Below are positions 2,482-42,018 of a stretch of DNA of 64,000 nt, piece by piece. A model generated the notes under the pieces. The model was given only the letters and a program-made list of their open reading frames with translations, searched no databases and was not told where the DNA came from. The first letter of the stretch is position 1. Each line of letters starts with the position of its first letter. Position numbers and translations under genes: made by a program. This stretch comes from Alphaproteobacteria bacterium (lineage in GTDB: Bacteria > Pseudomonadota > Alphaproteobacteria > CAAHEQ01 > UBA3637). Location: NCBI GenBank assembly GCA_045660045.1, contig JAZRDB010000014.1:55571-119570 (forward strand), in the 5' to 3' direction.

Positions 2482-3441
2482 TTAGAAGTTATACTTCACT
2501 TTCAGCATACCTGTATGGCTTTGGAAATCTTTACGGAATCCACCATGATAATCGGCAGACAAATCCCAAGCGCCAACACTCATGGTCAACCCTGCCCCAG
2601 CCTCCACGCCAAAGCGGTGCAAACGTTTACCATTCACTTGATAATCACCACCACCGATCACATATACATTAGCTTCGGATCCATCACTGATGAAATCATA
2701 GGTAATCGCCAAATTGGCATGTGGCGTAAAGGTGGCTTTGTCCGCATTAAATGCCTTTAGATAACGCACACCAGCCACACCGGTCAACAAATCGTTCTTG
2801 TCAGATTTGATGCGTTGTGCACCATCTGTGTAAGATTCTTGATCAAGCAACAAGTAACGGAGTCCCGCTTCTGGCGCAAAACCCGTAGCAAATTCATAAC
2901 CACTTATCAATTGAGCCGCATACGAATTCACATGATATTTTGCCTTCATCTTGATACCCATTGGCTCTTTTTCTTCTTCATACTTGCTATAGCCATAGCT
3001 CATCAACCAATTGGCATACCAGTTGCTTGGTTGATATTGGCCATACTAAATCACATTGTGTCCATCCACATCTATGTCGCGATGACCTGTATCAGCAGAT
3101 GTATCTGTGTAGGCATAACCAAAACCAACAGTCATGGCATCACTTAACTTACCATCCACACCCATCACAATACCGCGTGTATTGGCCGTAAAGCCCTCGC
3201 TAGAGGATGTTTCATCTTGTTTAGAGTGGTTATAAAAACCTTGCACCCATACACCACCGCCTTGGAATGTATCACCACCTGCAACGCCCATCGGCGCCAT
3301 ACGAGCGGTCGACAAACCAGCCAACGCTGGCATAGCAAAAACAACACCCATCAACAAAGCCATATTCAACAATGCGCACTTTTTCAAAACCTTTCCATAT
3401 CTATGGAATAATTCCATCAAAGTTGTTTTTGAATATTTCAT
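2482..3441 (-). pseudogene. passenger-less autotransporter-type beta-barrel OMP interrupted by one in-frame TAG
   Basis: ORFs 3046..3441 and 2482..3006 are in the same frame. They are separated only by TAG (3046-3048) plus 13 sense codons (...DVDGHNVI*YGQYQPSNWYANWLMSYGY...). The joined product has a signal peptide (VFAMPALA), then GVWVQGFY... beta-strand periodicity, and ends ...GMLKVKYNF with the terminal Phe typical of OMPs. Confidence 0.7.
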
Positions 3442-8464: not shown

Positions 8465-9247
8465 TCAAATATTTTTTGCACCACATCTTTCTGCTTCCTG
8501 ACGACGATATTCATAGGCCTGACAAACACCCTTATGATCTCCTTCTGCTGAGTTTTTTGCGGCTTCACATCGCCCTTTCAAAATTTGAGCTTTTTTGATA
8601 ACTGTAGAACAATCGTCACCCTTAGCATTTCCAGTATTTCTTTCCTTTTCACGATCTTTATCGCATTGTTCGGCCTCTTTACGACGATATTCATAGTCCT
8701 TACAAATACCTTTGACATCTCCTTCTGCGGAAGCTTTGGCTTTGTCGCATCTGGCCTTCAATTGAACCATTCTTTGTTTCACTTCAGAACAAGAAAGCCC
8801 CTTAGCATTTCCCGAACACTTACACTGTCCACCGGGTCCTTTCACACACACCTGTCCTTCTACTTTTGGACATGTTTCCCCAACAATTGTTGTAGAAGTA
8901 GCTCCCCCTGAACCGCTACTAGCCGGTCTTGGTCCAGCCAAAGATGTTGTACATTCTGCCGATTTTGCCACAGCACAATAGCTGCTTCCCTCCGCACAAG
9001 CGGCGCCATCATCATATCCTCTTTCAGCAGCTTCTTTTGCTCGTTGCGCTGCATCACACATCCGCTTGGCACACTTGCACTTATTGTACGTAACACTCTG
9101 ATCTTCCGCACACCACCCTTGAGCACTTTGACAGTTCCACGATGCCTTTACACGTAATTCATGATCTGACATATTTTTTGCATCTCCACCAGCAGATACT
9201 TCACAAGCCATACACAACACACCAACCATTAACAAGTATTTAAGCAT
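8465..9247 (-). CDS. secreted cysteine-rich repeat protein (no family recognised)
   Basis: 260 aa. Signal peptide MLKYLLMVGVLCMACEVSA and more than 20 Cys. The C-terminal half is two copies of a ~50-aa 4-Cys module. Confidence 0.7.
   Translation of the reverse strand: MLKYLLMVGVLCMACEVSAGGDAKNMSDHELRVKASWNCQSAQGWCAEDQSVTYNKCKCAKRMCDAAQRAKEAAERGYDDGAACAEGSSYCAVAKSAECTTSLAGPRPASSGSGGATSTTIVGETCPKVEGQVCVKGPGGQCKCSGNAKGLSCSEVKQRMVQLKARCDKAKASAEGDVKGICKDYEYRRKEAEQCDKDREKERNTGNAKGDDCSTVIKKAQILKGRCEAAKNSAEGDHKGVCQAYEYRRQEAERCGAKNI
8483..8812 (-). repeat. intragenic tandem duplication (2 x ~150 nt with a 30-nt linker) encoding the 4-Cys module
   Basis: Copy 1 is aa 146-195, GNAKGLSCSEVKQRMVQLKARCDKAKASAEGDVKGICKDYEYRRKEAEQC (8663-8812). 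Copy 2 is aa 206-255, GNAKGDDCSTVIKKAQILKGRCEAAKNSAEGDHKGVCQAYEYRRQEAERC (8483-8632). Cys spacing is identical in both. Confidence 0.8.
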
Positions 9248-20785: not shown

Positions 20786-22650
20786 ACAAACCAAAAGGAT
20801 TAGGCAGCAGTTTATTGATATGGGTGGCTTTATTTGCCGCCGTTTTTGCTATCTCCCAATTCACTTATTCGCCAGAAGAATTGAAAAAGACGGATGACAT
20901 TCCCTACTCTGAATTCGTTGAAAAAGTAAAAGGTGGTGACGTATATGCCGTCAAAATGCAAGGGCAAGAGGTATTTGGCACTCGCAAAGACGCCTCAAAA
21001 TTCAAGACATATGTTCCAAACAATGCCCAAATTGTTGAATTGTTAGAAAAGAACAAAGTGACCATCAGCGCCGAGCCAGAAGACACATCAGAGGGGTGGT
21101 TTAGCGCTTTGGTCGGTTGGTTGCCGATGTTGTTCTTTTTATTCTTCTGGATCATCATGATGCGCCAAATGGCCGCCAGCAATGGCAAAGCCTTGAGTTT
21201 TGGCAAATCCAAAGCACGGCTTTTGACAGGAAAAGATAGTGTTACTTTTAAAGACGTTGCCGGCATTGAAGAAGCAAAACAAGAGCTTCAAGAGATTGTG
21301 GAATTTTTAAAAGCTCCAATGAAGTTCCAACGCTTGGGCGGTAAAATCCCCAAAGGCGTGTTGTTGGTTGGCCCTCCAGGAACTGGTAAAACATTGCTTG
21401 CCAAGGCAATTGCAGGAGAAGCGGGCGTGCCATTTTACTCTATTTCCGGCTCAGATTTCGTAGAAATGTTCGTGGGCGTAGGTGCATCACGTGTTCGCGA
21501 TATGTTTGAACAAGCCAAAAAAACATGCCCTTGTATCGTGTTTATGGACGAAATTGATGCGGTTGGCCGTCATCGTGGCGCAGGCTTGGGTGGCGGTAAT
21601 GACGAACGCGAACAAACATTGAACCAATTGTTGGTGGAGATGGATGGTTTTGAAACGAATAGCGGTATCATCTTGATGGCCGCCACAAACCGTCCGGATG
21701 TGTTGGATCCCGCCCTTTTGCGCCCTGGTCGTTTTGACCGTCAAGTGGTTGTGAATAACCCTGATGTCAAGGGTCGTGAAGATATTTTAAAGGTCCATGT
21801 GCGCAAAGTACCGTTGGCACCCAATGTCCGCCTTGATATCTTGGCACGCGGCACGCCGGGCTTTTCTGGCGCAGATTTGGCTAATTTAGTGAATGAAGCC
21901 GCCTTGCTGGCCGCCCGTCGCAATAAAACGATGGTTACTATGGGCGATTTTGAAGATGCAAAAGATAAAGTTATGATGGGTACAGAACGCCGTAGCTTGA
22001 TTATGGACGAAAAGGAAAAGCGCATGACCGCCTATCATGAAGCGGGACATGCGATCGTGTCGCTGCATCTACCCGAATCAGATCCGTTGCACAAAGTGAC
22101 GATTATTCCACGCGGACGTGCTTTGGGCGTCACAATGCAATTACCCGAAAAGGATAAATATTCACAAAGCAAAACCTATTTGCAAAGCCGTTTGTCTATT
22201 TTGTTCGCCGGTCGTGTGGCGGAAGAAATGATTTTAGGCAAAGAGAAAGTATCCACAGGAGCCAGCAATGACATCCAAGTGGCCACCACTATCGCACGCC
22301 GTATGGTGACTGAATGGGGCATGAGTCCGCTGGGCCCAATTGCCTTTGAAGAACCCGAAAGTGACGTGTTCTTGGGTTACAGTATCGCCAAACGTAAAAA
22401 CATGGCCGATAATACCGCTTTACAGGTGGATAAAGCCATCAGCACGTTGGTCCAAAATGCCTATCGCCGTACGCAAAACATCTTGCGCCAATATAAAAAG
22501 GAATTAGATATCTTGGCCAAAGGATTGATTGAATATGAAACTTTGTCTGGTGACGAGGTACATGACCTTTTAAAAGGTAAAAAAATTCGCGAGGACGAAA
22601 AGAAAATATCTTTAAAGAAACCTCGTCCAACGGTCCCAGACGTGAAATAA
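20782..22650 (+). CDS. ftsH: ATP-dependent zinc metalloprotease FtsH
   Basis: Walker A GPPGTGKT, second region of homology, and zinc site HEAGHA. ATGA overlap with tilS. Confidence 0.95.
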
Positions 22651-22663
22651 CATCAAAAGCAAA

Positions 22664-22690
22664 ACCCCGACATCACGCCGGGGTTTTTAT
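22664..22690. terminator. bidirectional terminator (ftsH / convergent pilin-like operon)
   Basis: ACCCCG (22664-22669) / CGGGGT (22679-22684) hairpin. TTTTTATT on the plus side and AAAAGCAAAA on the other side. Confidence 0.7.
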
Positions 22691-22704
22691 TGCACGAACG
22701 CCTA

Positions 22705-24477
22705 TTATGGTGATGGAGCAGTACATGCCCCCCCAGCACTCCAGCTGCACCCCATATTAACACACACACTTTCCACCTTAATTCGTTCACATGCAACACC
22801 CATCGTGCGTGTCTTTGTTGGGCTGTTGTCCGTTCCATCGGGTGTACCATCACTGTTCCAGTCAATATTATTCGGATCAAACACACAATAGGTTTGAAGA
22901 ATAACACGTACATATTCATTTGTTGTCGGCGTGCTGAGGTTACCGCTTACATCACGATATCCCATTTTGATTGCAAAATCCTTTCTATTACTCGTTGTCT
23001 CTATCCCTTGAGACATATCAGAGCTTGTTGTACTATCCGACAATTCCACCCATAAACGATGCGACCCATACGATGGAACTGTAACATTATGCGAATGGCC
23101 ACTTTCTGAAGTGGTAGATATAGTAGTAGTACTAGAACTATGAACAAAATTGACACCAAACTGTGTTGGGATCACTGCCACAGCTGCTTTATATCCAGTT
23201 GGACAAGTGACAGAAGCACTCAACGTGCATTCACTTCCCAAACCAGGCCCTGGTCCGAGATCACAACTATACACCTGTTGTCCCTTTAAAATATAATTCG
23301 GTAAGATGTCCGACAAGCTGGCGCCACCGCGGCTCATCAACTTGATATCGTTCATGACCGATGTATATTTCGGGTCCAACACATAATTAACTTTATTGGG
23401 GCTGCCGACACTTCCAGGATTTTGAGGATCTTCTACTTCATCTTTTTCAAACACAATCATCCCATCTTTATCAAAACGCATGGCAGATTTTCCCGCATCA
23501 GCACCATCCCATTCACGTCCAACGGTTAAATCATTCAACACATGCACCGCCCCCGTGGCTTTGTGTGACGCGCCAGTTCCCGTATCCGCTTCCACGAAAA
23601 ACGCCGGGAAGCAATAATTGTTTCCCGCCGCATGAATCGTATCATTTCGTAATGTTGCAAATCCATCCGCATCCACACTGGTCGTTCTTGGCGAGGTGAT
23701 TTGATAACAATCGCTTGTGGCACCGGCTGTAAACACGCCATAAGCTGTTGAATCCTGCATAGCCACATTCCAATGCTCTGGCAACCCTAATTTCAAATCT
23801 GGAATATCAATTTCGGGTTGGAACACATCCGTTCCCGTAATCGCCACATACGTTGGTCTAGACTCATCTTCAATCAAACCATCGACAGGCAAATTCCATG
23901 TGCCAACTGCACCAGCAATAAGATCTTCCGTAATTAACGGATCATACGCACCACCATCGACACCAATCAACATCGCAACACGCGCTGCACGCCGAAAATT
24001 CCATGATTCATCCGAGGGCAAAGTAACCTCTGGATTAGGAATAACAACCCCATAATATGTCAAGATACCGGGCTCTCTGTTTCCACGACGATATCCCACT
24101 AATTTCAAGATATAATTGTCCTTCAAAATGGCACCTCTATCTATCGCACCACCTTCTTCATCTGAAAAATAACCTTCTGGCAAAAAGTCTTTAATTGCAT
24201 CAATCTCGGCATCGGTCACATCACATATATTGGTGGCATCCAAAGCTGGATCAACAGGGCAAGTGACGCCCAAACGGGTAGATTCTGCTTGAATCCAAGC
24301 CGCAAAGGCATCTTTCACAACACGAATTTCTGAGGCCATTTGAATATTGTGCAATTCTTGGTTACGAACATACATTTGGCGGAACAACATGGCCCCCATC
24401 AACCCCATAAGGCTGAGCACAGCCACCACTTCCAGCATAATTGCACCAGATTCAGATATTAAAGTTTTTCTTTTCAT
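22705..24477 (-). CDS. large (590 aa) protein with a prepilin-type (class III) N-terminus; remainder unrecognised
   Basis: GAGGAGG SD. The N-terminus is MKRKTLISESG|AIMLEVVAVLSLMGLMGAMLF: a basic leader, Gly (24445-24447), Glu at +5 (24430-24432), then a ~20-residue hydrophobic helix. Also has an Asp-rich loop DWNSDGTPDGTDNS and a Cys-rich C-terminus. Confidence 0.6.
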   Translation of the reverse strand: MKRKTLISESGAIMLEVVAVLSLMGLMGAMLFRQMYVRNQELHNIQMASEIRVVKDAFAAWIQAESTRLGVTCPVDPALDATNICDVTDAEIDAIKDFLPEGYFSDEEGGAIDRGAILKDNYILKLVGYRRGNREPGILTYYGVVIPNPEVTLPSDESWNFRRAARVAMLIGVDGGAYDPLITEDLIAGAVGTWNLPVDGLIEDESRPTYVAITGTDVFQPEIDIPDLKLGLPEHWNVAMQDSTAYGVFTAGATSDCYQITSPRTTSVDADGFATLRNDTIHAAGNNYCFPAFFVEADTGTGASHKATGAVHVLNDLTVGREWDGADAGKSAMRFDKDGMIVFEKDEVEDPQNPGSVGSPNKVNYVLDPKYTSVMNDIKLMSRGGASLSDILPNYILKGQQVYSCDLGPGPGLGSECTLSASVTCPTGYKAAVAVIPTQFGVNFVHSSSTTTISTTSESGHSHNVTVPSYGSHRLWVELSDSTTSSDMSQGIETTSNRKDFAIKMGYRDVSGNLSTPTTNEYVRVILQTYCVFDPNNIDWNSDGTPDGTDNSPTKTRTMGVACERIKVESVCVNMGCSWSAGGACTAPSP

Positions 24478-24498
24478 ATTACCTCCTCGCTATTCGAC

Positions 24499-26199
24499 CT
24501 ATTTCCATACTTTTTGAATACCATATCGCATACTGTCAACTTTAAAATTCTTCACGATTTCTTTTTCTGATAACGCCTTATTATAATAACGAACGTTGCC
24601 AATACCAACCTGATTACGTCCTAAAACAACCTTAATATTGTTTGCAATAGCATCGATTCCATCTTTATCTTCAACCACCTTTGTTCCGTCTAAATATAAA
24701 GACATTTTGCCACTTTTACGCACAATTGTCCAAGAATGCGGCACCCCCATCACATCAATTGCGTTTCCATCGTCGTTCTCAATGGTATAGCCTTTAAAAT
24801 TAACACCTTCAATCTCCCCAGGATAAAACACAACTTGATGATCATTATAATACAATCCATAGGCTCCTTCAAGCGTAACAGTACCAGAAACATCATTTGA
24901 TGATCCAATAATCCAACCATTAACAGGAGACGAATTACCAAAATGCGTAATCACAATTAAGGTAAAATCACTTGTACCATGATTAAACGGCATTTGAATA
25001 CCTTCTTCTACATCTGGATCAGCAGCATATACCGAACTGTAACGACCATTATATCCCCAAGTCACACCCGCAATTTCTGTTCCCATTGGTTTGGTGGCAT
25101 ACCATGTCTGTCCCGATCCTGTGCTGCGTTTTTTTGCTCCCACAACTTTATTATCAATACCATCAAAATGAAACGTTGGCTCAGAAATGGCGTCATACGG
25201 ATCTTTTATCTCGTTCATACAAAAGAAAACGCCCGATAAGCTTTTACCTTTTCTACCGCCACCACCAGAGCATTCCACCGATACAACCTTTTCCAAAAAG
25301 GATTCCATTCCCTGGGGCAATAAACGCATACAACGGCTTCCGTTATGTATGCAATAACGCGACTCATCCGATGCACCACTACTCATACTGCCAGACATTC
25401 CCTCTATACGACCACCAGATTTCTTTTTATAATACCCATCTGTTGTGGTACAAACATCTGCCGCTTGAGAAATAATCCCACAATTATAGGCTGCATGCGT
25501 TCTGTTAGCCATTGCACGACGCCACAATTCATACCGAAGTGCCTTGGGTTGCCTAGCTTTATCCCACCAATCTGGATCATCCTTATTATCCGAATACGTT
25601 ACCACATACGGGCGCACATCATTGGCAAATTTGACCCCAACTTGTGTTTGACCTGAAGAACAAAGCGTTCCAACAGTAGGGAAAACAATACTTGCACCAT
25701 CCTTACATACATACTGATAGCACGGAACCAAGTTATTAGTCGCATTCAAACACACCAACGCGGACAAATAACTTCCCTGACTATACCCATCTTTAAACGC
25801 CAAATAGCTCATAGAATCCTGTGCTGGATCAAGGCTAACGCCCGACCTCAATGTCCAACGTTCAATAGAAAAATTGGAATCAAATGAGGATGAAATGGGT
25901 GTTTGCAACGATATAAAATCTTCCATTTCCGCCGGGATCGACCAAGCACTAGCAGCTGATTCAGCAGAGCTACTGATTGTACTATCCTTTAGGTTTTCTA
26001 TATAAGAGTTATTGAAATAAATTCGACCCAACCATTGATTTAAATAATCACGAGCGGCTTGATGTTGATTAATAAAACCAACGATATAACCTTCTGCAGA
26101 CCTTGTATCCACATCCCGACGCAATTGCACTGGCGCTGGATCCATCATATAGATCAACAGACTGGCTAACAATGTCAAAAACGAGACCAAATAAAACAT
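24499..26199 (-). CDS. membrane-anchored protein (566 aa) with a C-terminal LamG/concanavalin-like domain
   Basis: GGGAG SD. N-terminal hydrophobic anchor MFYLVSFLTLLASLLIYMM. The last ~165 aa (about 24520-25017) follow the LamG pattern ...HSWTIVRKSGKMSLYLDGTKVV...VVLGRNQ..IGNVRYYNKALSEKEI. Confidence 0.6.
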   Translation of the reverse strand: MFYLVSFLTLLASLLIYMMDPAPVQLRRDVDTRSAEGYIVGFINQHQAARDYLNQWLGRIYFNNSYIENLKDSTISSSAESAASAWSIPAEMEDFISLQTPISSSFDSNFSIERWTLRSGVSLDPAQDSMSYLAFKDGYSQGSYLSALVCLNATNNLVPCYQYVCKDGASIVFPTVGTLCSSGQTQVGVKFANDVRPYVVTYSDNKDDPDWWDKARQPKALRYELWRRAMANRTHAAYNCGIISQAADVCTTTDGYYKKKSGGRIEGMSGSMSSGASDESRYCIHNGSRCMRLLPQGMESFLEKVVSVECSGGGGRKGKSLSGVFFCMNEIKDPYDAISEPTFHFDGIDNKVVGAKKRSTGSGQTWYATKPMGTEIAGVTWGYNGRYSSVYAADPDVEEGIQMPFNHGTSDFTLIVITHFGNSSPVNGWIIGSSNDVSGTVTLEGAYGLYYNDHQVVFYPGEIEGVNFKGYTIENDDGNAIDVMGVPHSWTIVRKSGKMSLYLDGTKVVEDKDGIDAIANNIKVVLGRNQVGIGNVRYYNKALSEKEIVKNFKVDSMRYGIQKVWK

Positions 26200-26218
26200 T
26201 TACACTCCCTTTGTTCCC

Positions 26219-26247
26219 ATTGTAAAGAGATTTAAAATTTTTCGCAA
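26219..26247 (-). promoter_or_regulatory. sigma70-type promoter TTGCGA-17-TACAAT for the LamG/pilin-like operon
   Basis: On the minus strand: TTGCGA (26247-26242), 17-nt spacer, TACAAT (26224-26219). The predicted +1 is ~13 nt upstream of ATG 26199. Confidence 0.6.
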
Positions 26248-26258
26248 GCGTTTTTTTA

Positions 26259-27002
26259 TTATTTTTTCTGACTTAGAGCAGCCAAAACATTATACAGCGT
26301 TTTCAATTCTGCATTTGTCAATCTATCACGTTCAAAAATGTTATGTAAATTTCGTTGCATTCGCTCTTGTTTTTCTGGCATTGCATAATAGCCTGCCCCC
26401 ATCAAAGATTCATCCAATCGTTTTAAAAACACGGACAATTCCTTTTTTGTAGCAGGCTTACCTGCTCCCATGGCAAGCTTTTCTTTATCTTGAAAATGTC
26501 GTGTCCACCAATGATATCCCATAATCAAAACTGCCTGTGACAAATTCAACGAACTATGAGCAGGATTTAATGGAATTTGAACCAACGCATCAGACAATGC
26601 TAAATCTAAATTTTCCAAACCCGTCCTTTCGGGTCCAAAGATCCAAGCGACTTTTTCCTTCTGTTTTAAAGCGCTTTCTGTCTTTTGACTTGCCACAACA
26701 GGCCCCATAAACGGCTTCGTCATATCACGGTCACGTGCTGTTGTTGCAAACACCATGTGAATATCCATCAAAGCTTCTTCCAACGAATTAAAAACTGTCG
26801 CATTTTCCAAAACGGTCGCGGCTCCAGACGATGCAGAAATCGCCTTTTGACCTCTCCAATCTTGTCGCGGATTAACCAAACGAAGTTGTGATAAACCACA
26901 ATTCATCATGGCACGCGCAACCATTCCCATATTTTCCGCCAATTGCGACCGAACCAACACAATAATTGGACCCCCTTGATTTACCAAAGGAACCTTTTTC
27001 AT
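26259..27002 (-). CDS. trmJ: tRNA (cytidine/uridine-2'-O)-methyltransferase TrmJ (SpoU class)
   Basis: IIVLVRSQLAENMGMVARAMMNCGL..LRLVNPR aligns with the E. coli TrmJ N-terminus. SPOUT motifs FGPERTGL and SLNLSQAV. Confidence 0.8.
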   Translation of the reverse strand: MKKVPLVNQGGPIIVLVRSQLAENMGMVARAMMNCGLSQLRLVNPRQDWRGQKAISASSGAATVLENATVFNSLEEALMDIHMVFATTARDRDMTKPFMGPVVASQKTESALKQKEKVAWIFGPERTGLENLDLALSDALVQIPLNPAHSSLNLSQAVLIMGYHWWTRHFQDKEKLAMGAGKPATKKELSVFLKRLDESLMGAGYYAMPEKQERMQRNLHNIFERDRLTNAELKTLYNVLAALSQKK

Positions 27003-27805
27003 CTGGTACGCTGTCCTGAACGAGTGGAGCGAACCTTTTCCTGAATCGGCATTGTTGTTTTTTGCTGATTAGCACCTTGATCCTCTTGTTGCTTTTTAGC
27101 CTCAGCATTACCAGCAGCATTCTTCTTTTTACGGGCTTCTTGTTCTTGATACAGCTTACGATTTGCTTCGGCTTTTTTCAAAGCATCCTCCCAACCTCTC
27201 GGTAAACGGCGTGTATCAATACCACTTTTTTTAATTTCCTCCACAGTCATCGGCATTTGAATTGGAGCTGACTTTTGTCCTAAATGCTGATGTCCAATTT
27301 CCTCCACCTGCATTAACGCATTTTGATGCATAGCCACCAACTCATCTTTGGAAGCACGAACTTCTTCAAAAGATCCTAGCAATTCTGGTGTATTCAGGCC
27401 CGCTAATTTTACCGATGGATCTTCTGTGACAGGAGAAGAAACATAGTCATCCACTATCTCTTCAGACCCCATTTTACGACGATCTATGTCAAAATTAACA
27501 TGCTCACTCTTACCCCCAGTTATTTGTTGCATCAAGCGCTCTGGATCATCCTGCATCAAGCGGCTCATATTTTCAACAGCGTTTACATTGTCCATTGTCA
27601 CAACATTATTATAGCGTTGTAAATCTGAGACAAAATCTGCCCCCGCACTATTAGGTAACGTTTTTGCTTTAACCATCATCTTCATTTTTGTGACATTGGG
27701 ACGTATTACGCTCGTTGTACGAACACCGCTCACATCACTAGGTGTCACAGCTGCAAAAGAAACGGGCGAAACACCTAATAATAATAACAAAGCAATCTTT
27801 TTCAT
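26999..27805 (-). CDS. secreted hypothetical protein with a Lys/Gln-rich tail
   Basis: 268 aa. Signal peptide MKKIALLLLLGVSPVSFA. No family recognised. ATGA overlap with trmJ. Confidence 0.5.
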   Translation of the reverse strand: MKKIALLLLLGVSPVSFAAVTPSDVSGVRTTSVIRPNVTKMKMMVKAKTLPNSAGADFVSDLQRYNNVVTMDNVNAVENMSRLMQDDPERLMQQITGGKSEHVNFDIDRRKMGSEEIVDDYVSSPVTEDPSVKLAGLNTPELLGSFEEVRASKDELVAMHQNALMQVEEIGHQHLGQKSAPIQMPMTVEEIKKSGIDTRRLPRGWEDALKKAEANRKLYQEQEARKKKNAAGNAEAKKQQEDQGANQQKTTMPIQEKVRSTRSGQRTR

Positions 27806-41616: not shown

Positions 41617-42018
41617 ATGGAAAAAACGTTACAAGATTTGACGCGGCAATTATTGGCCCTTTCTAAAAGCGCTGCCGAAGACAAAGTGTTACCTCAGGAA
41701 ATGCAATTAATTCAAGAAAAAGCATTTAAAGTTCAAGAAGAAATGATGGAACTTTTGACCGAACAAGAAGCCACCACGTCTGACATCCGCGAAGTACAAA
41801 ACATTTTTCAAATTCGGGAAGATGTGTGGGATATCATGAATAACCTTGCCATTCGTGAAGCTGAGGTCAAAGCAAAATTTGGTATTAAAGGTGAAAGTCC
41901 CAAGACAGAACATACCTGTTGTCATCACCATCATCATGATGGCGAGTGTTGCTGCGGACATCATCATGAAGAAAAGACATGCTGTAAAAAGGAGAAGAAG
42001 ACATGCCACAAAAAATAA
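41617..42018 (+). CDS. small coiled-coil protein with a His/Cys-rich C-terminal tail (hypothetical)
   Basis: 133 aa with a GGAGAAAG SD. The tail is HTCCHHHHHDGECCCGHHHEEKTCCKKEKKTCHKK (41911-42015). The 3' end overlaps xseB by 16 nt. Confidence 0.6.
   Translation: MEKTLQDLTRQLLALSKSAAEDKVLPQEMQLIQEKAFKVQEEMMELLTEQEATTSDIREVQNIFQIREDVWDIMNNLAIREAEVKAKFGIKGESPKTEHTCCHHHHHDGECCCGHHHEEKTCCKKEKKTCHKK

Follow-up and report, generated by a model that had tools for sequence, protein, structure and literature searches.

A PilV-like prepilin and its leaderless, lectin-fold partner as a probable type IVb pilus tip module in uncultured gut Alphaproteobacteria

Two adjacent minus-strand genes, here called geneA and geneB, were analysed in a 64,000-nucleotide stretch of DNA from an uncultured alphaproteobacterium (GenBank assembly GCA_045660045.1, contig JAZRDB010000014.1, positions 55,571 to 119,570; the whole stretch is referred to below as the window). 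The pair probably forms a module for the tip or the initiation of a type IVb pilus resembling those of R64 and PAPI-1 (PilL-N-O-P-Q-R), with the machinery encoded elsewhere in the genome. GeneB is homologous to PilV and carries an invariant prepilin signal, geneA and geneB are paired across relatives, geneA contains a lectin fold, and pilus machinery is linked to the pair in related genomes. A preceding reading made from the sequence only had suggested a tip-adhesin or minor-pilin module, and the PilV homology, the pairing and the linkage to machinery lead to the same interpretation. The two genes, identified as open reading frames (ORFs), are:

22705-24477, minus strand: geneB, a 590-aa PilV-like type IVb prepilin (large minor pilin)
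24499-26199, minus strand: geneA, a 566-aa membrane-anchored partner protein, leaderless and lacking Glu5

Prepilin signal and structural organisation of geneB

The following parts of geneB were delineated, all on the minus strand:

24382-24477: residues 1-32, class III signal with the leader MKRKTLISESG, predicted cleavage after Gly11, Glu at +5 and hydrophobic α1N (from the conservation of G11 and E16)
23833-24477: residues 1-215, pilin-like N-terminal domain homologous to the PilV constant region, including RAARVAMLIGVDGG (AlphaFold2, hhalign)
23290-23385: residues 365-396, the most conserved motif outside α1, YVLDPKYTSVMNDIKLMSRGGASLSDILPNYILK (alignment)
22873-23295: residues ~395-535, C-terminal β-sandwich bounded by invariant Cys425 (CPxGY) and Cys531 (YCVFD) (alignment, AlphaFold2)
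22708-22791: residues 563-590, Cys-rich tail with a C-x-G-C-x-W-type knot, a lineage-variable accessory module (alignment)

The translation of geneB begins with MKRKTLISESG/AIMLEVVAVLSLMGLMGAMLF, where the slash marks the predicted cleavage site and the mature protein would start with AIMLE; it also contains DWNSDGTPDGTDNS and the Cys-rich tail. That this N-terminus is a class III signal, as first read from the letters, is well supported by the family alignment of 32 members, in which G11 (position -1) and E16 (position +5) are invariant (32/32) and the first ~55 residues, corresponding to α1, are the best-conserved part of the protein (SGAIMLEV.AVL.LMG.MG.MLFRQ.Y.RNQEL.N.QMASE.R..K.AF). Over the rest of the protein, members are just 28-60% identical. 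All complete homologues, from ~70 species-level loci, have a short, mostly basic leader, the pattern G[AST]xxxE and a hydrophobic run. A word-index search yielded 93 homologues, and an exhaustive profile search of 1.84 billion proteins yielded 591 representative clusters, 475 of them at E ≤ 1e-10.

AlphaFold2 (AF2) models of geneA and geneB are of medium confidence, with a mean predicted local distance difference test (pLDDT) score of 68-69. In the geneB model a continuous helix spans residues 6-64, and behind it comes a region rich in strands (within 82-213) that also contains short helices; the pLDDT is mostly 84-93 over residues 11-210; the C-terminal β-sandwich occupies residues 395-533. 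The model gave weak Foldseek matches to H-type lectins (E 0.12-0.2), reminiscent of CofB. Residues 365-396 consist of invariant or nearly invariant columns and are retained in giant relatives of 1000-2100 aa, yet AF2 models them at pLDDT <50; this combination hints at an interface, and the segment may be an interaction surface beyond the reach of a monomer model.

Two further elements pointed out in the sequence-only reading are present in the translation but are not family-wide. Conservation of the Asp-rich, Ca-site-like loop is lineage-specific, being limited to the four closest homologues, and the loop is therefore not counted as a functional feature; the Cys-rich tail is found in most aligned homologues, sometimes duplicated, but is absent from the most distant ones.

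Relationship of geneB to the PilV lineage

Profile-profile comparison assigns geneB, as a distant member, to the type IVb minor pilins of the PilV (Shufflon_N) lineage. An hhalign comparison of the geneB profile with PilV of Bosea sp. RAC05 gave a probability of 95.4% and an E-value of 1.8e-8 over 366 columns, with the G/E signal, the RAARVA-LIG-DGG...G-W block, the LDPxYTS...LSDILPNY motif and CPxGY all in register; the geneB motif YxLDPxYTSVMNDIKL...RLSDILPNYILK is aligned to YYLQPGATSNLNNL...RLGDLLPRYVLQ of the Bosea protein. The terminal Cys motif of geneB, TYCVF, resembles TYCYY of Bosea PilV when read by eye, outside the aligned range. Bosea PilV is itself a bona fide Shufflon_N member (PF04917, 43.6 bits versus a gathering score of 27.5), and BLASTP relates its constant region to PilV of IncI-complex plasmids (2e-17). 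The geneB profile also matches a PilV-like protein of the Methylorubrum extorquens AM1 megaplasmid (hhalign 94.7%, E 5.7e-8), and both alphaproteobacterial PilVs directly match giant geneB relatives in tblastn searches (E down to 4e-13). The initial view of geneB as a protein of an unknown type is thus corrected: it is a distant relative of a family that has been characterised in IncI plasmids.

PilV proteins, encoded by IncI/R64-type plasmids and PAPI-1-type islands (PF04917), share with geneB a short leader ending in Gly, Glu at +5, a long α1, a homologous N-terminal constant domain, a length of 450-650 aa and a variable C-terminus. The PilV-like position after the platform gene is found in the L080 lineage (L-numbers denote the fetched genome loci) and in the Bosea and Methylorubrum clusters. 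The differences are that the residue at +1 is Ala, Ser or Thr in geneB and Phe or Leu in PilV, and that geneB is a chromosomal core gene, usually detached from the machinery and devoid of a shufflon. The C-terminal β-sandwich and the LDPxYTS...LSDILPNY motif are common to geneB and alphaproteobacterial PilVs only, and the geneB family includes giant variants of 1000-2100 aa. Many PilV genes have no shufflon. A search for shufflon-like inverted repeats at the 3' end of geneB found none, with only short, chance-level repeats in positions 22000-26600, and no recombinase gene occurs near geneB, judging from the synteny with the annotated locus L001 and from Pfam analysis of the window. A tblastn search with geneB against 72,556 plasmids gave no match.

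The giant geneB relatives (1000-2141 aa; L056-L077, e.g., L068:6995-13420 and L075:7640-10981) keep the signal, the N-terminal domain and the C-terminal motifs and contain a long, repeat-rich, β-helix-like central insert; each has a short geneA-like neighbour.

GeneA: architecture, lectin module and pairing with geneB

Two regions of geneA, both on the minus strand, are of particular relevance:

26032-26199: residues 1-56, a hydrophobic helix from Met1 (residues 2-19), a DPAP kink (20-23) and an amphipathic helix with NQHQAARDY (24-56) (conservation, AF2)
24520-25002: residues ~400-560, a ConA-like/LamG lectin jelly roll (Foldseek, sub-threshold Pfam)

Throughout the family, geneA starts with a hydrophobic helix at Met1 (MFYLVSFLTLL.SLLIYMM), followed by the nearly invariant DPAP kink, the NQHQAARDY amphipathic helix and a Cys-containing, β-rich domain. 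There is neither a leader nor a Gly, and position 5 is V, S, G, L or M, never Glu. An in-frame TAA immediately precedes the geneA ATG, which makes an N-terminal extension impossible; the upstream stop and the family alignment thus confirm the hydrophobic anchor without the Gly/Glu5 motif that had been read from the sequence.

The AF2 model of geneA has a predicted template modelling (pTM) score of 0.67, with a pLDDT of 75-93 in the lectin-fold region. Foldseek gave 357 matches in the Protein Data Bank (PDB) at E ≤ 0.001, among them BoNT Hc, and matched the C-terminus to the lectin-like domain of Trypanosoma cruzi trans-sialidase (1ms9; E 1.8e-8, probability 1.00, root-mean-square deviation 3.7 Å, 165 columns). 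The LamG/concanavalin C-terminus recognised earlier is therefore upheld at the level of fold, while the Pfam evidence stays below threshold: Laminin_G_3 (PF13385) matches residues 446-548 with E 1.6e-4 and 22.3 bits, against a gathering score of 27.6. PF13385 is annotated in precomputed data for the homologue P0100, and L036 scores 20.9 bits. Another Foldseek match, to the lectin-bearing minor pilin PilC of Streptococcus sanguinis (7oa7, E 5e-7), is uninformative on a pilin fold in geneA, since that crystal structure does not include the pilin moiety (PMC9934059). Short forms of geneA (220-380 aa) have no lectin domain and keep both the pairing with geneB and the N-terminal core of ~340 residues, which indicates that the lectin is an add-on module.

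A geneA-like gene was found by BLAST directly upstream of geneB in about 40 of 77 loci; in most of the remaining loci, including those with giant forms and other genomic contexts, a leaderless ORF with a hydrophobic N-terminus lies upstream, and in L068 and L075 the geneA-like gene is downstream. Nearly every geneB homologue thus has a geneA-like gene beside it, and the co-occurrence that had been proposed as a check holds across about 70 species. The pair has diverged more than its surroundings: relative to L001, FtsH, PssA, TrmJ and TilS are 98, 95, 89 and 85% identical, versus 53% for geneA and 57% for geneB. Faster change than in neighbouring genes is as expected for exposed binding proteins or adhesins.

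Leaderless genes occupy the same place in two cultivable bacteria. In Bosea sp. RAC05 plasmid pBSY19_1, a leaderless 199-aa "hypothetical protein" is encoded immediately upstream of pilV (L085:15404-16003), and in the M. extorquens AM1 megaplasmid a gene for a leaderless protein of ~195 aa, unannotated in the record, lies upstream of pilV (L087:8321-8896). Aligned from their starts, the N-termini of these proteins match those of the geneA short forms (hhalign E 4.6e-5, probability 69%, 55 columns); for the geneA long forms, the comparison with the Bosea 199-aa protein was not significant (E 0.027). Like geneA, the Bosea and Methylorubrum proteins have a hydrophobic helix from Met1, an amphipathic helix with a Q-H-x-A-A-like motif and the same position and orientation relative to the PilV-like gene; unlike geneA, they are much shorter and have no lectin domain, with the similarity extending over ~55 residues, and they are themselves uncharacterised. 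The IncI-complex cluster (L086) has no counterpart of the leaderless gene; there, pilS-pilT-pilU precede pilV.

The architecture of geneA is compatible with two roles. It might be an inner-membrane-anchored periplasmic chaperone or docking factor for a PilV-like pilin geneB, its LamG domain binding an envelope or periplasmic glycan or geneB itself; we regard this as possible but not as the favoured option. The missing leader, Gly and Glu5 and the lack of detectable pilin homology agree with such a role, as does the persistence of pairing in the lectin-less short forms, which would place the core function in the N-terminal ~340 residues; in S. sanguinis, PilA stabilises PilC (PMC9934059). On the other hand, the lectin jelly roll and the many conserved cysteines suggest an exposed binding module, hydrophobic helix, Pro kink, amphipathic helix and β domain follow one another as in a processed pilin, and the extreme tip is where a subunit without Glu5 would be expected (PMC9934059, PMC5207764). 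A placement of geneA in the tip module, which these last points favour, is considered further below.

Type IVb machinery in related genomes

The sequence-only reading described the pair as an orphan, with no pilus machinery in the 64 kb. Within the window this is correct: Pfam analysis of 35-64 kb and 1-9 kb showed housekeeping genes only, the annotated locus L001 is syntenic over 14-35 kb, and tblastn searches with the TcpQ, secretin, PilO, PilP, ATPase and platform proteins of the clade gave no match in the window. A second ORF with a class III-like signal was also not found within it. At the level of the clade the pair is not an orphan, as a conserved cluster adjoins it in some genomes and, in a syntenic relative, is found elsewhere in the same genome.

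The cluster was found by a tblastn search with Escherichia coli GspE/HofB against all fetched loci, which identified L055, where it is convergent with a geneB fragment at the contig end. Pfam and NCBIfam annotation of this cluster reveals a TcpQ-domain protein, a PilN-type secretin (TIGR02520, E 1.6e-83), a PAP_PilO protein, a PilP-family protein (TIGR03021, 39.5 bits versus a cutoff of 34.65), a T2SSE ATPase and a T2SSF platform protein. For the ATPase, 7919 relatives were scored; the top 120 are 63-100% identical, and all named ones are from uncultured Alphaproteobacteria. The seven-gene cluster is constant across the ATPase contexts, and its gene order is that of the Bosea and IncI-complex clusters. 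The Bosea cluster on pBSY19_1, found via a tblastn search with the clade PilO against plasmids, encodes TcpQ, the secretin, PilO2, a hypothetical protein, the ATPase and the platform protein, then a PilT-like ATPase, the 199-aa protein and an annotated PilV tip adhesin.

The linkage between the cluster and the pair takes several forms. In L080, the next transcription unit after the cluster is a convergent operon whose geneA-like and geneB-like genes encode 269 and 477 aa; in L055/L081, the platform gene of the cluster is directly adjacent to and convergent with the pair; and in L051/L082, pair and cluster are ~11 kb apart on one contig. In the metagenome-assembled genome (MAG) RGIG7351, the pair is on JAFYRI010000007 (L031) and the cluster on JAFYRI010000003 (L083) of one assembly. 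Assembly GCA_045605805.1 has the pair on JAZUQR010000021 (L008) and the cluster on JAZUQR010000027 (L088); the gene order in L008, PssA-u268-TrmJ-geneA-geneB-FtsH-TilS, is identical to that of the window, and FtsH is 86% identical. A pair that looks orphaned at this position can thus have its machinery in another part of the genome, and we infer the same for the genome analysed here. At most geneB loci, including the window, the pair is detached from the cluster and not at its distal end.

A trbC/virB2-like gene stands divergently beside the type IVb cluster in several loci (L081:120-3490, L083:3409-3795, L088:3031-3369, L089:2640-2999); in L081, VirB3-like and VirB4 genes come after it, and three of the contexts have a two-component system immediately beyond. 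This arrangement suggests a conserved neighbourhood of a type IV secretion system (T4SS) and a type IVb pilus.

Given the part of PilV in conjugation and these trbC/VirB neighbours, T4SS-linked contact is a real alternative to host adhesion: the module could serve cell-to-cell mating or contact of this type (cf. recipient recognition by R64 PilV in liquid mating) rather than attachment to the animal host. The closest characterised family, PilV, is annotated as a conjugative thin-pilus adhesin, and the trbC/virB2-like gene beside the cluster in four loci, with VirB3-like and VirB4 genes in L081, points in the same direction. The pair and the cluster are, however, located among core housekeeping genes in conserved synteny rather than on any recognisable mobile element, the 3' end of geneB shows no shufflon-like inverted repeats, the clade is restricted to animal guts and geneA has a lectin fold; a conjugative or T4SS-linked role in place of host adhesion appears rather unlikely.

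Related MAGs contain, at scattered loci, a second prepilin-like family, ESG/RSMVEMLGVLAIIGVLS..., whose N-terminus reads ESG/RSMVEMLGVLAIIGVLSVGGI.GY..AM.K.KANE (L007:19527-19970 on the minus strand, L010:1718-2851, L018, L028, L031, L034, L039, L049, L051, L082:1-988). Its members range from 147 to about 1000 aa, many have Cys-rich modules, and none is encoded in the window; they score below threshold on prepilin models (TIGR02532, 11.6 bits versus 16.3). The 147-aa form, with two C-terminal Cys, is encoded 8 kb from the pair in L007. The ESG/RSMVEMLGVLAIIGVLS family, including the 147-aa form, is the likely source of the major pilin.

This family bears on another idea, in which geneB would not be a rare tip subunit: as the main or sole protein to polymerise, it would build a short pseudopilus-like or thick filament acting as a secretion piston or in surface display. 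The machinery cluster itself contains no canonical small pilin gene, and geneB is a single-copy core gene present in every sampled genome, as such a subunit would be. The ESG/RSMVEMLGVLAIIGVLS family, with its 147-aa form, offers a better candidate for the major pilin, the PilV homologues are minor pilins, and a subunit of 55-60 kDa (or 100-200 kDa) with bulky C-terminal domains cannot pack like known major pilins, which counts against geneB as the filament core. We consider this alternative improbable and retain the assignment of geneB as a minor pilin.

Proposed assembly and points that weigh against it

In the proposed tip or initiation module, geneB would be inserted into the inner membrane via its N-terminal helix, cleaved after Gly11 by an A24 prepilin peptidase and admitted to the filament through the α1 helix and Glu5; its fast-evolving C-terminal β domains and Cys-rich tail would then be exposed at the end of the pilus. 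GeneA, its obligate partner in this scheme, starts with a pilin-like hydrophobic helix, resembles an already processed pilin and, having no leader, Gly or Glu5, would need no peptidase. With lower confidence, geneA may cap or dock onto geneB and present the ConA/LamG lectin module for glycan binding.

Several known systems offer precedents. Tip complexes capped by subunits without Glu5 (GspK, PilA) have been described, and modular pilins can bear lectin modules (PMC9934059); type IVb pili are initiated by a single large minor pilin (PMC5207764). The S. sanguinis PilA/PilB/PilC complex resembles the pair in being an operon-encoded set of minor pilins, one of them without Glu5 and one with a ConA-like lectin (PMC9934059), for which a tip location and glycan binding have likewise been proposed; the differences are that PilC has a canonical class III signal and geneA none, that there is no sequence homology and that the S. 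sanguinis pilus is a monoderm, type IVa-like one. TcpB of Vibrio cholerae and CofB of enterotoxigenic E. coli are, like geneB, the one large multi-domain minor pilin of their type IVb system, with 420-520 aa and Glu5 (PMC5207764, PMC6048534); a tip location and a role in priming assembly are attributed to them, and their C-terminal domains are β-rich, as in geneB. No sequence or structural match links them to geneB, the machinery here is PilLNOPQR (R64/PAPI-1) and not Tcp/Cof, and, unlike geneB, they have no leaderless partner.

A bolder version holds that geneA-type proteins are an unrecognised class of "born-processed" pilin-like subunits, leaderless, lacking Glu5 and with an α1N-like helix from Met1, which bypass the prepilin peptidase, cap minor pilins of the PilV type on alphaproteobacterial type IVb pili and carry swappable binding modules (LamG here), and that a once-conjugative pilus has become fixed in the core genome of the clade as the main organelle of attachment to a host or partner, with geneB expanded into repeat-rich variants of 1000-2100 aa. 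We put this forward as a speculation that is rather doubtful in its entirety.

A number of results weigh against the pilus tip interpretation. The geneB of the window has no Pfam or NCBIfam match, including N_methyl (PF07963) and TIGR02532; the significant match to prepilin N-terminal hidden Markov models (HMMs) that the sequence-only reading called for did not materialise, and the 32 family members gave only sub-threshold matches, although every one was to a model of pilin type: GspG matched 8 of the 32 (best E 0.0044), ComGE 7 (best E 0.0019) and N_methyl 3 (best E 0.11). The Shufflon_N model PF04917 and the NCBIfam PilV model match neither the window geneB at E ≤ 10 nor the 32 members at E ≤ 1, and with canonical IncI-complex PilV only α1 aligns (E 0.0026, probability 11%), so the relation between geneB and PilV runs through the alphaproteobacterial intermediates. 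A search with the geneB family profile against PDB sequences returned no pilin, with chance matches only (Cas12h, YqeY), and a Foldseek search with the whole geneB model against the PDB gave nothing significant (best E 0.05). No A24 prepilin peptidase was found in ~1.4 Mb of clade flanks, either by Pfam annotation or by tblastn with GspO and IncI-complex PilU. As for geneA, hhalign comparison with E. coli pseudopilins was not significant, and a paralogous origin of geneA and geneB was ruled out (hhalign E 0.091, probability 0.6%); having no detectable homology to geneB or pseudopilins, geneA is "pilin-like" in architecture only. Its link to the Bosea and Methylorubrum partner proteins is limited, covering just 55 columns in addition to synteny, and the incorporation of geneA into a pilus is a conjecture.

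The prepilin models seem biased toward Phe or Met at +1, because the small pilins of the clade, too, fall below the TIGR02532 threshold. In an hhalign comparison, 25 columns of the geneB signal fall in register with the signals of E. coli GspG/H/I/J/PpdD (P 3.3e-4), at a probability of only 38%. As there is no significant prepilin HMM match, the prepilin case rests on conservation, on the profile-profile homology to PilV and on genomic linkage. The same evidence bears on a further alternative, in which both proteins are ordinary signal-anchored envelope proteins and the G/E pattern is a coincidence within a conserved transmembrane helix. Prepilin HMMs below threshold, the lack of a peptidase among the sequences searched and the location of the pair among cell-envelope and housekeeping genes would fit it. 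Coincidence is hard to reconcile with PilV profile homology over 366 columns, with giant forms tied to PilV directly by tblastn, with Gly-1 and Glu+5 being invariant despite low overall identity (about 25-30%), with the pair adjoining the type IVb cluster in L080 and L055 and with pilV and its partner lying at the same position, the end of the Bosea and Methylorubrum clusters. We therefore consider the ordinary-anchor explanation very improbable, and a type IVb pilus tip or initiation module the best account of the pair.

Distribution

All 71 of 71 genome loci belong to gut or rumen Alphaproteobacteria from goat, yak, sheep, deer, buffalo, rabbit, horse or human samples, and geneB is a single-copy core gene, present in every sampled genome. 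A literature search on pili in this clade (RF32) found nothing relevant. Two records, L024 (CAYPVK010000006.1, with a geneA/geneB pair) and L055 (CAZXTR010000011.1, with the geneB fragment and the cluster), are titled "uncultured Lactobacillales bacterium"; this label is probably wrong.

Locus layout and expression signals

The remaining elements of the locus, all on the minus strand, are:

26219-26247: promoter-like TTGCGA-17-TACAAT in the spacer between trmJ and geneA (position only)
24478-24498: geneA-geneB junction of 21 nt with the GAGGAGG Shine-Dalgarno site for geneB (sequence read)
22661-22687: intrinsic terminator hairpin AAAACCCCGGCGTGATGTCGGGGTTTT, common to the convergent ftsH (stem and T-run)

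Sequence and translation agree with the earlier description of both ORFs, of the Shine-Dalgarno sites (GGGAG 5' of geneA and GAGGAGG 5' of geneB) and of the 21-nt junction. The terminator is confirmed at 22687-22661, where geneB and ftsH converge; the hairpin AAAACCCCGGCGTGATGTCGGGGTTTT has a 12-bp stem with 6 GC pairs and precedes a T-run. The promoter described as near-consensus exists as a sequence, TTGCGA-17-TACAAT, but is indistinguishable from chance: in the promoter scan it scores 9/12, and promoter-like sites are not enriched in the stretch (13 versus 10.1 ± 3.0 in shuffles). With the consensus scan at chance level, the promoter is plausible by its intergenic position alone.

Other genes of the window

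Synteny with the annotated locus L001 places tol-pal/ybgF-tilS-ftsH on one side of the pair and trmJ, pssA, psd, trmB, glgP, mltG and fabF on the other. Farther out (35-64 kb), Pfam analysis identified FabG, a MacB/HlyD/TolC exporter, IspA, Nth, GcrA and DnaX, as well as an MsbA-like exporter, a SpoIIE-type phosphatase and glycosyltransferases; the left end of the window (1-9 kb) encodes a thioesterase, a deaminase, IalB and a split autotransporter β-domain. The latter, PF03797, is divided between two neighbouring minus-strand ORFs (2482-3006 and 3046-3441) with no visible passenger, and the gene is probably frameshifted or decayed.

Three proteins without a Pfam match were also noted. A 133-aa protein (41617-42018, plus strand; no match at E ≤ 1e-5 in a concatenated scan) ends in a Cys/His-rich tail, HTCCHHHHHDGECCCGHHHEEKTCCKKEKKTCHKK, and may bind metal. 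A secreted Cys-rich protein of 260 aa (8465-9247, minus strand) contains an internal duplication of ~70 aa (GNAKG..CS.V...K.RC..AK.SAEGD.KG.C..YEYRR.EAE.C). A 268-aa signal-peptide protein, u268 (26999-27805, minus strand), lies between pssA and trmJ; its position is kept in relatives while its sequence diverges fast, with 68% identity in L001 and 26-52% in others.

Biological meaning

The analysis gives two "hypothetical" families, for which there is no Pfam or NCBIfam model, a function class as a type IVb pilus tip module, geneB alone comprising ~590 clusters at 50% identity. Both are core genes of a clade of uncultured Alphaproteobacteria inhabiting the guts of ruminants, rabbit, horse and human. 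The pair does not amount to a new kind of system but is a type IVb minor-pilin module in an unannotated, strongly diverged form. What is unusual in this variant is its chromosomal and core character, its usual detachment from the machinery, the unstudied leaderless partner with swappable modules and the giant paralogues. Genes of thin pili of the conjugative-plasmid type (PilL-V) can evidently be fixed in the chromosome, the genes for the adhesins being set apart from those for the machinery. For annotation, it follows that current prepilin models miss pilins with Ala, Ser, Thr or Arg at +1. A conserved, unstudied leaderless partner of PilV is present in the cultivable Bosea and Methylorubrum, and, if this partner does enter the pilus, the rules for entry into type IV filaments would be wider.

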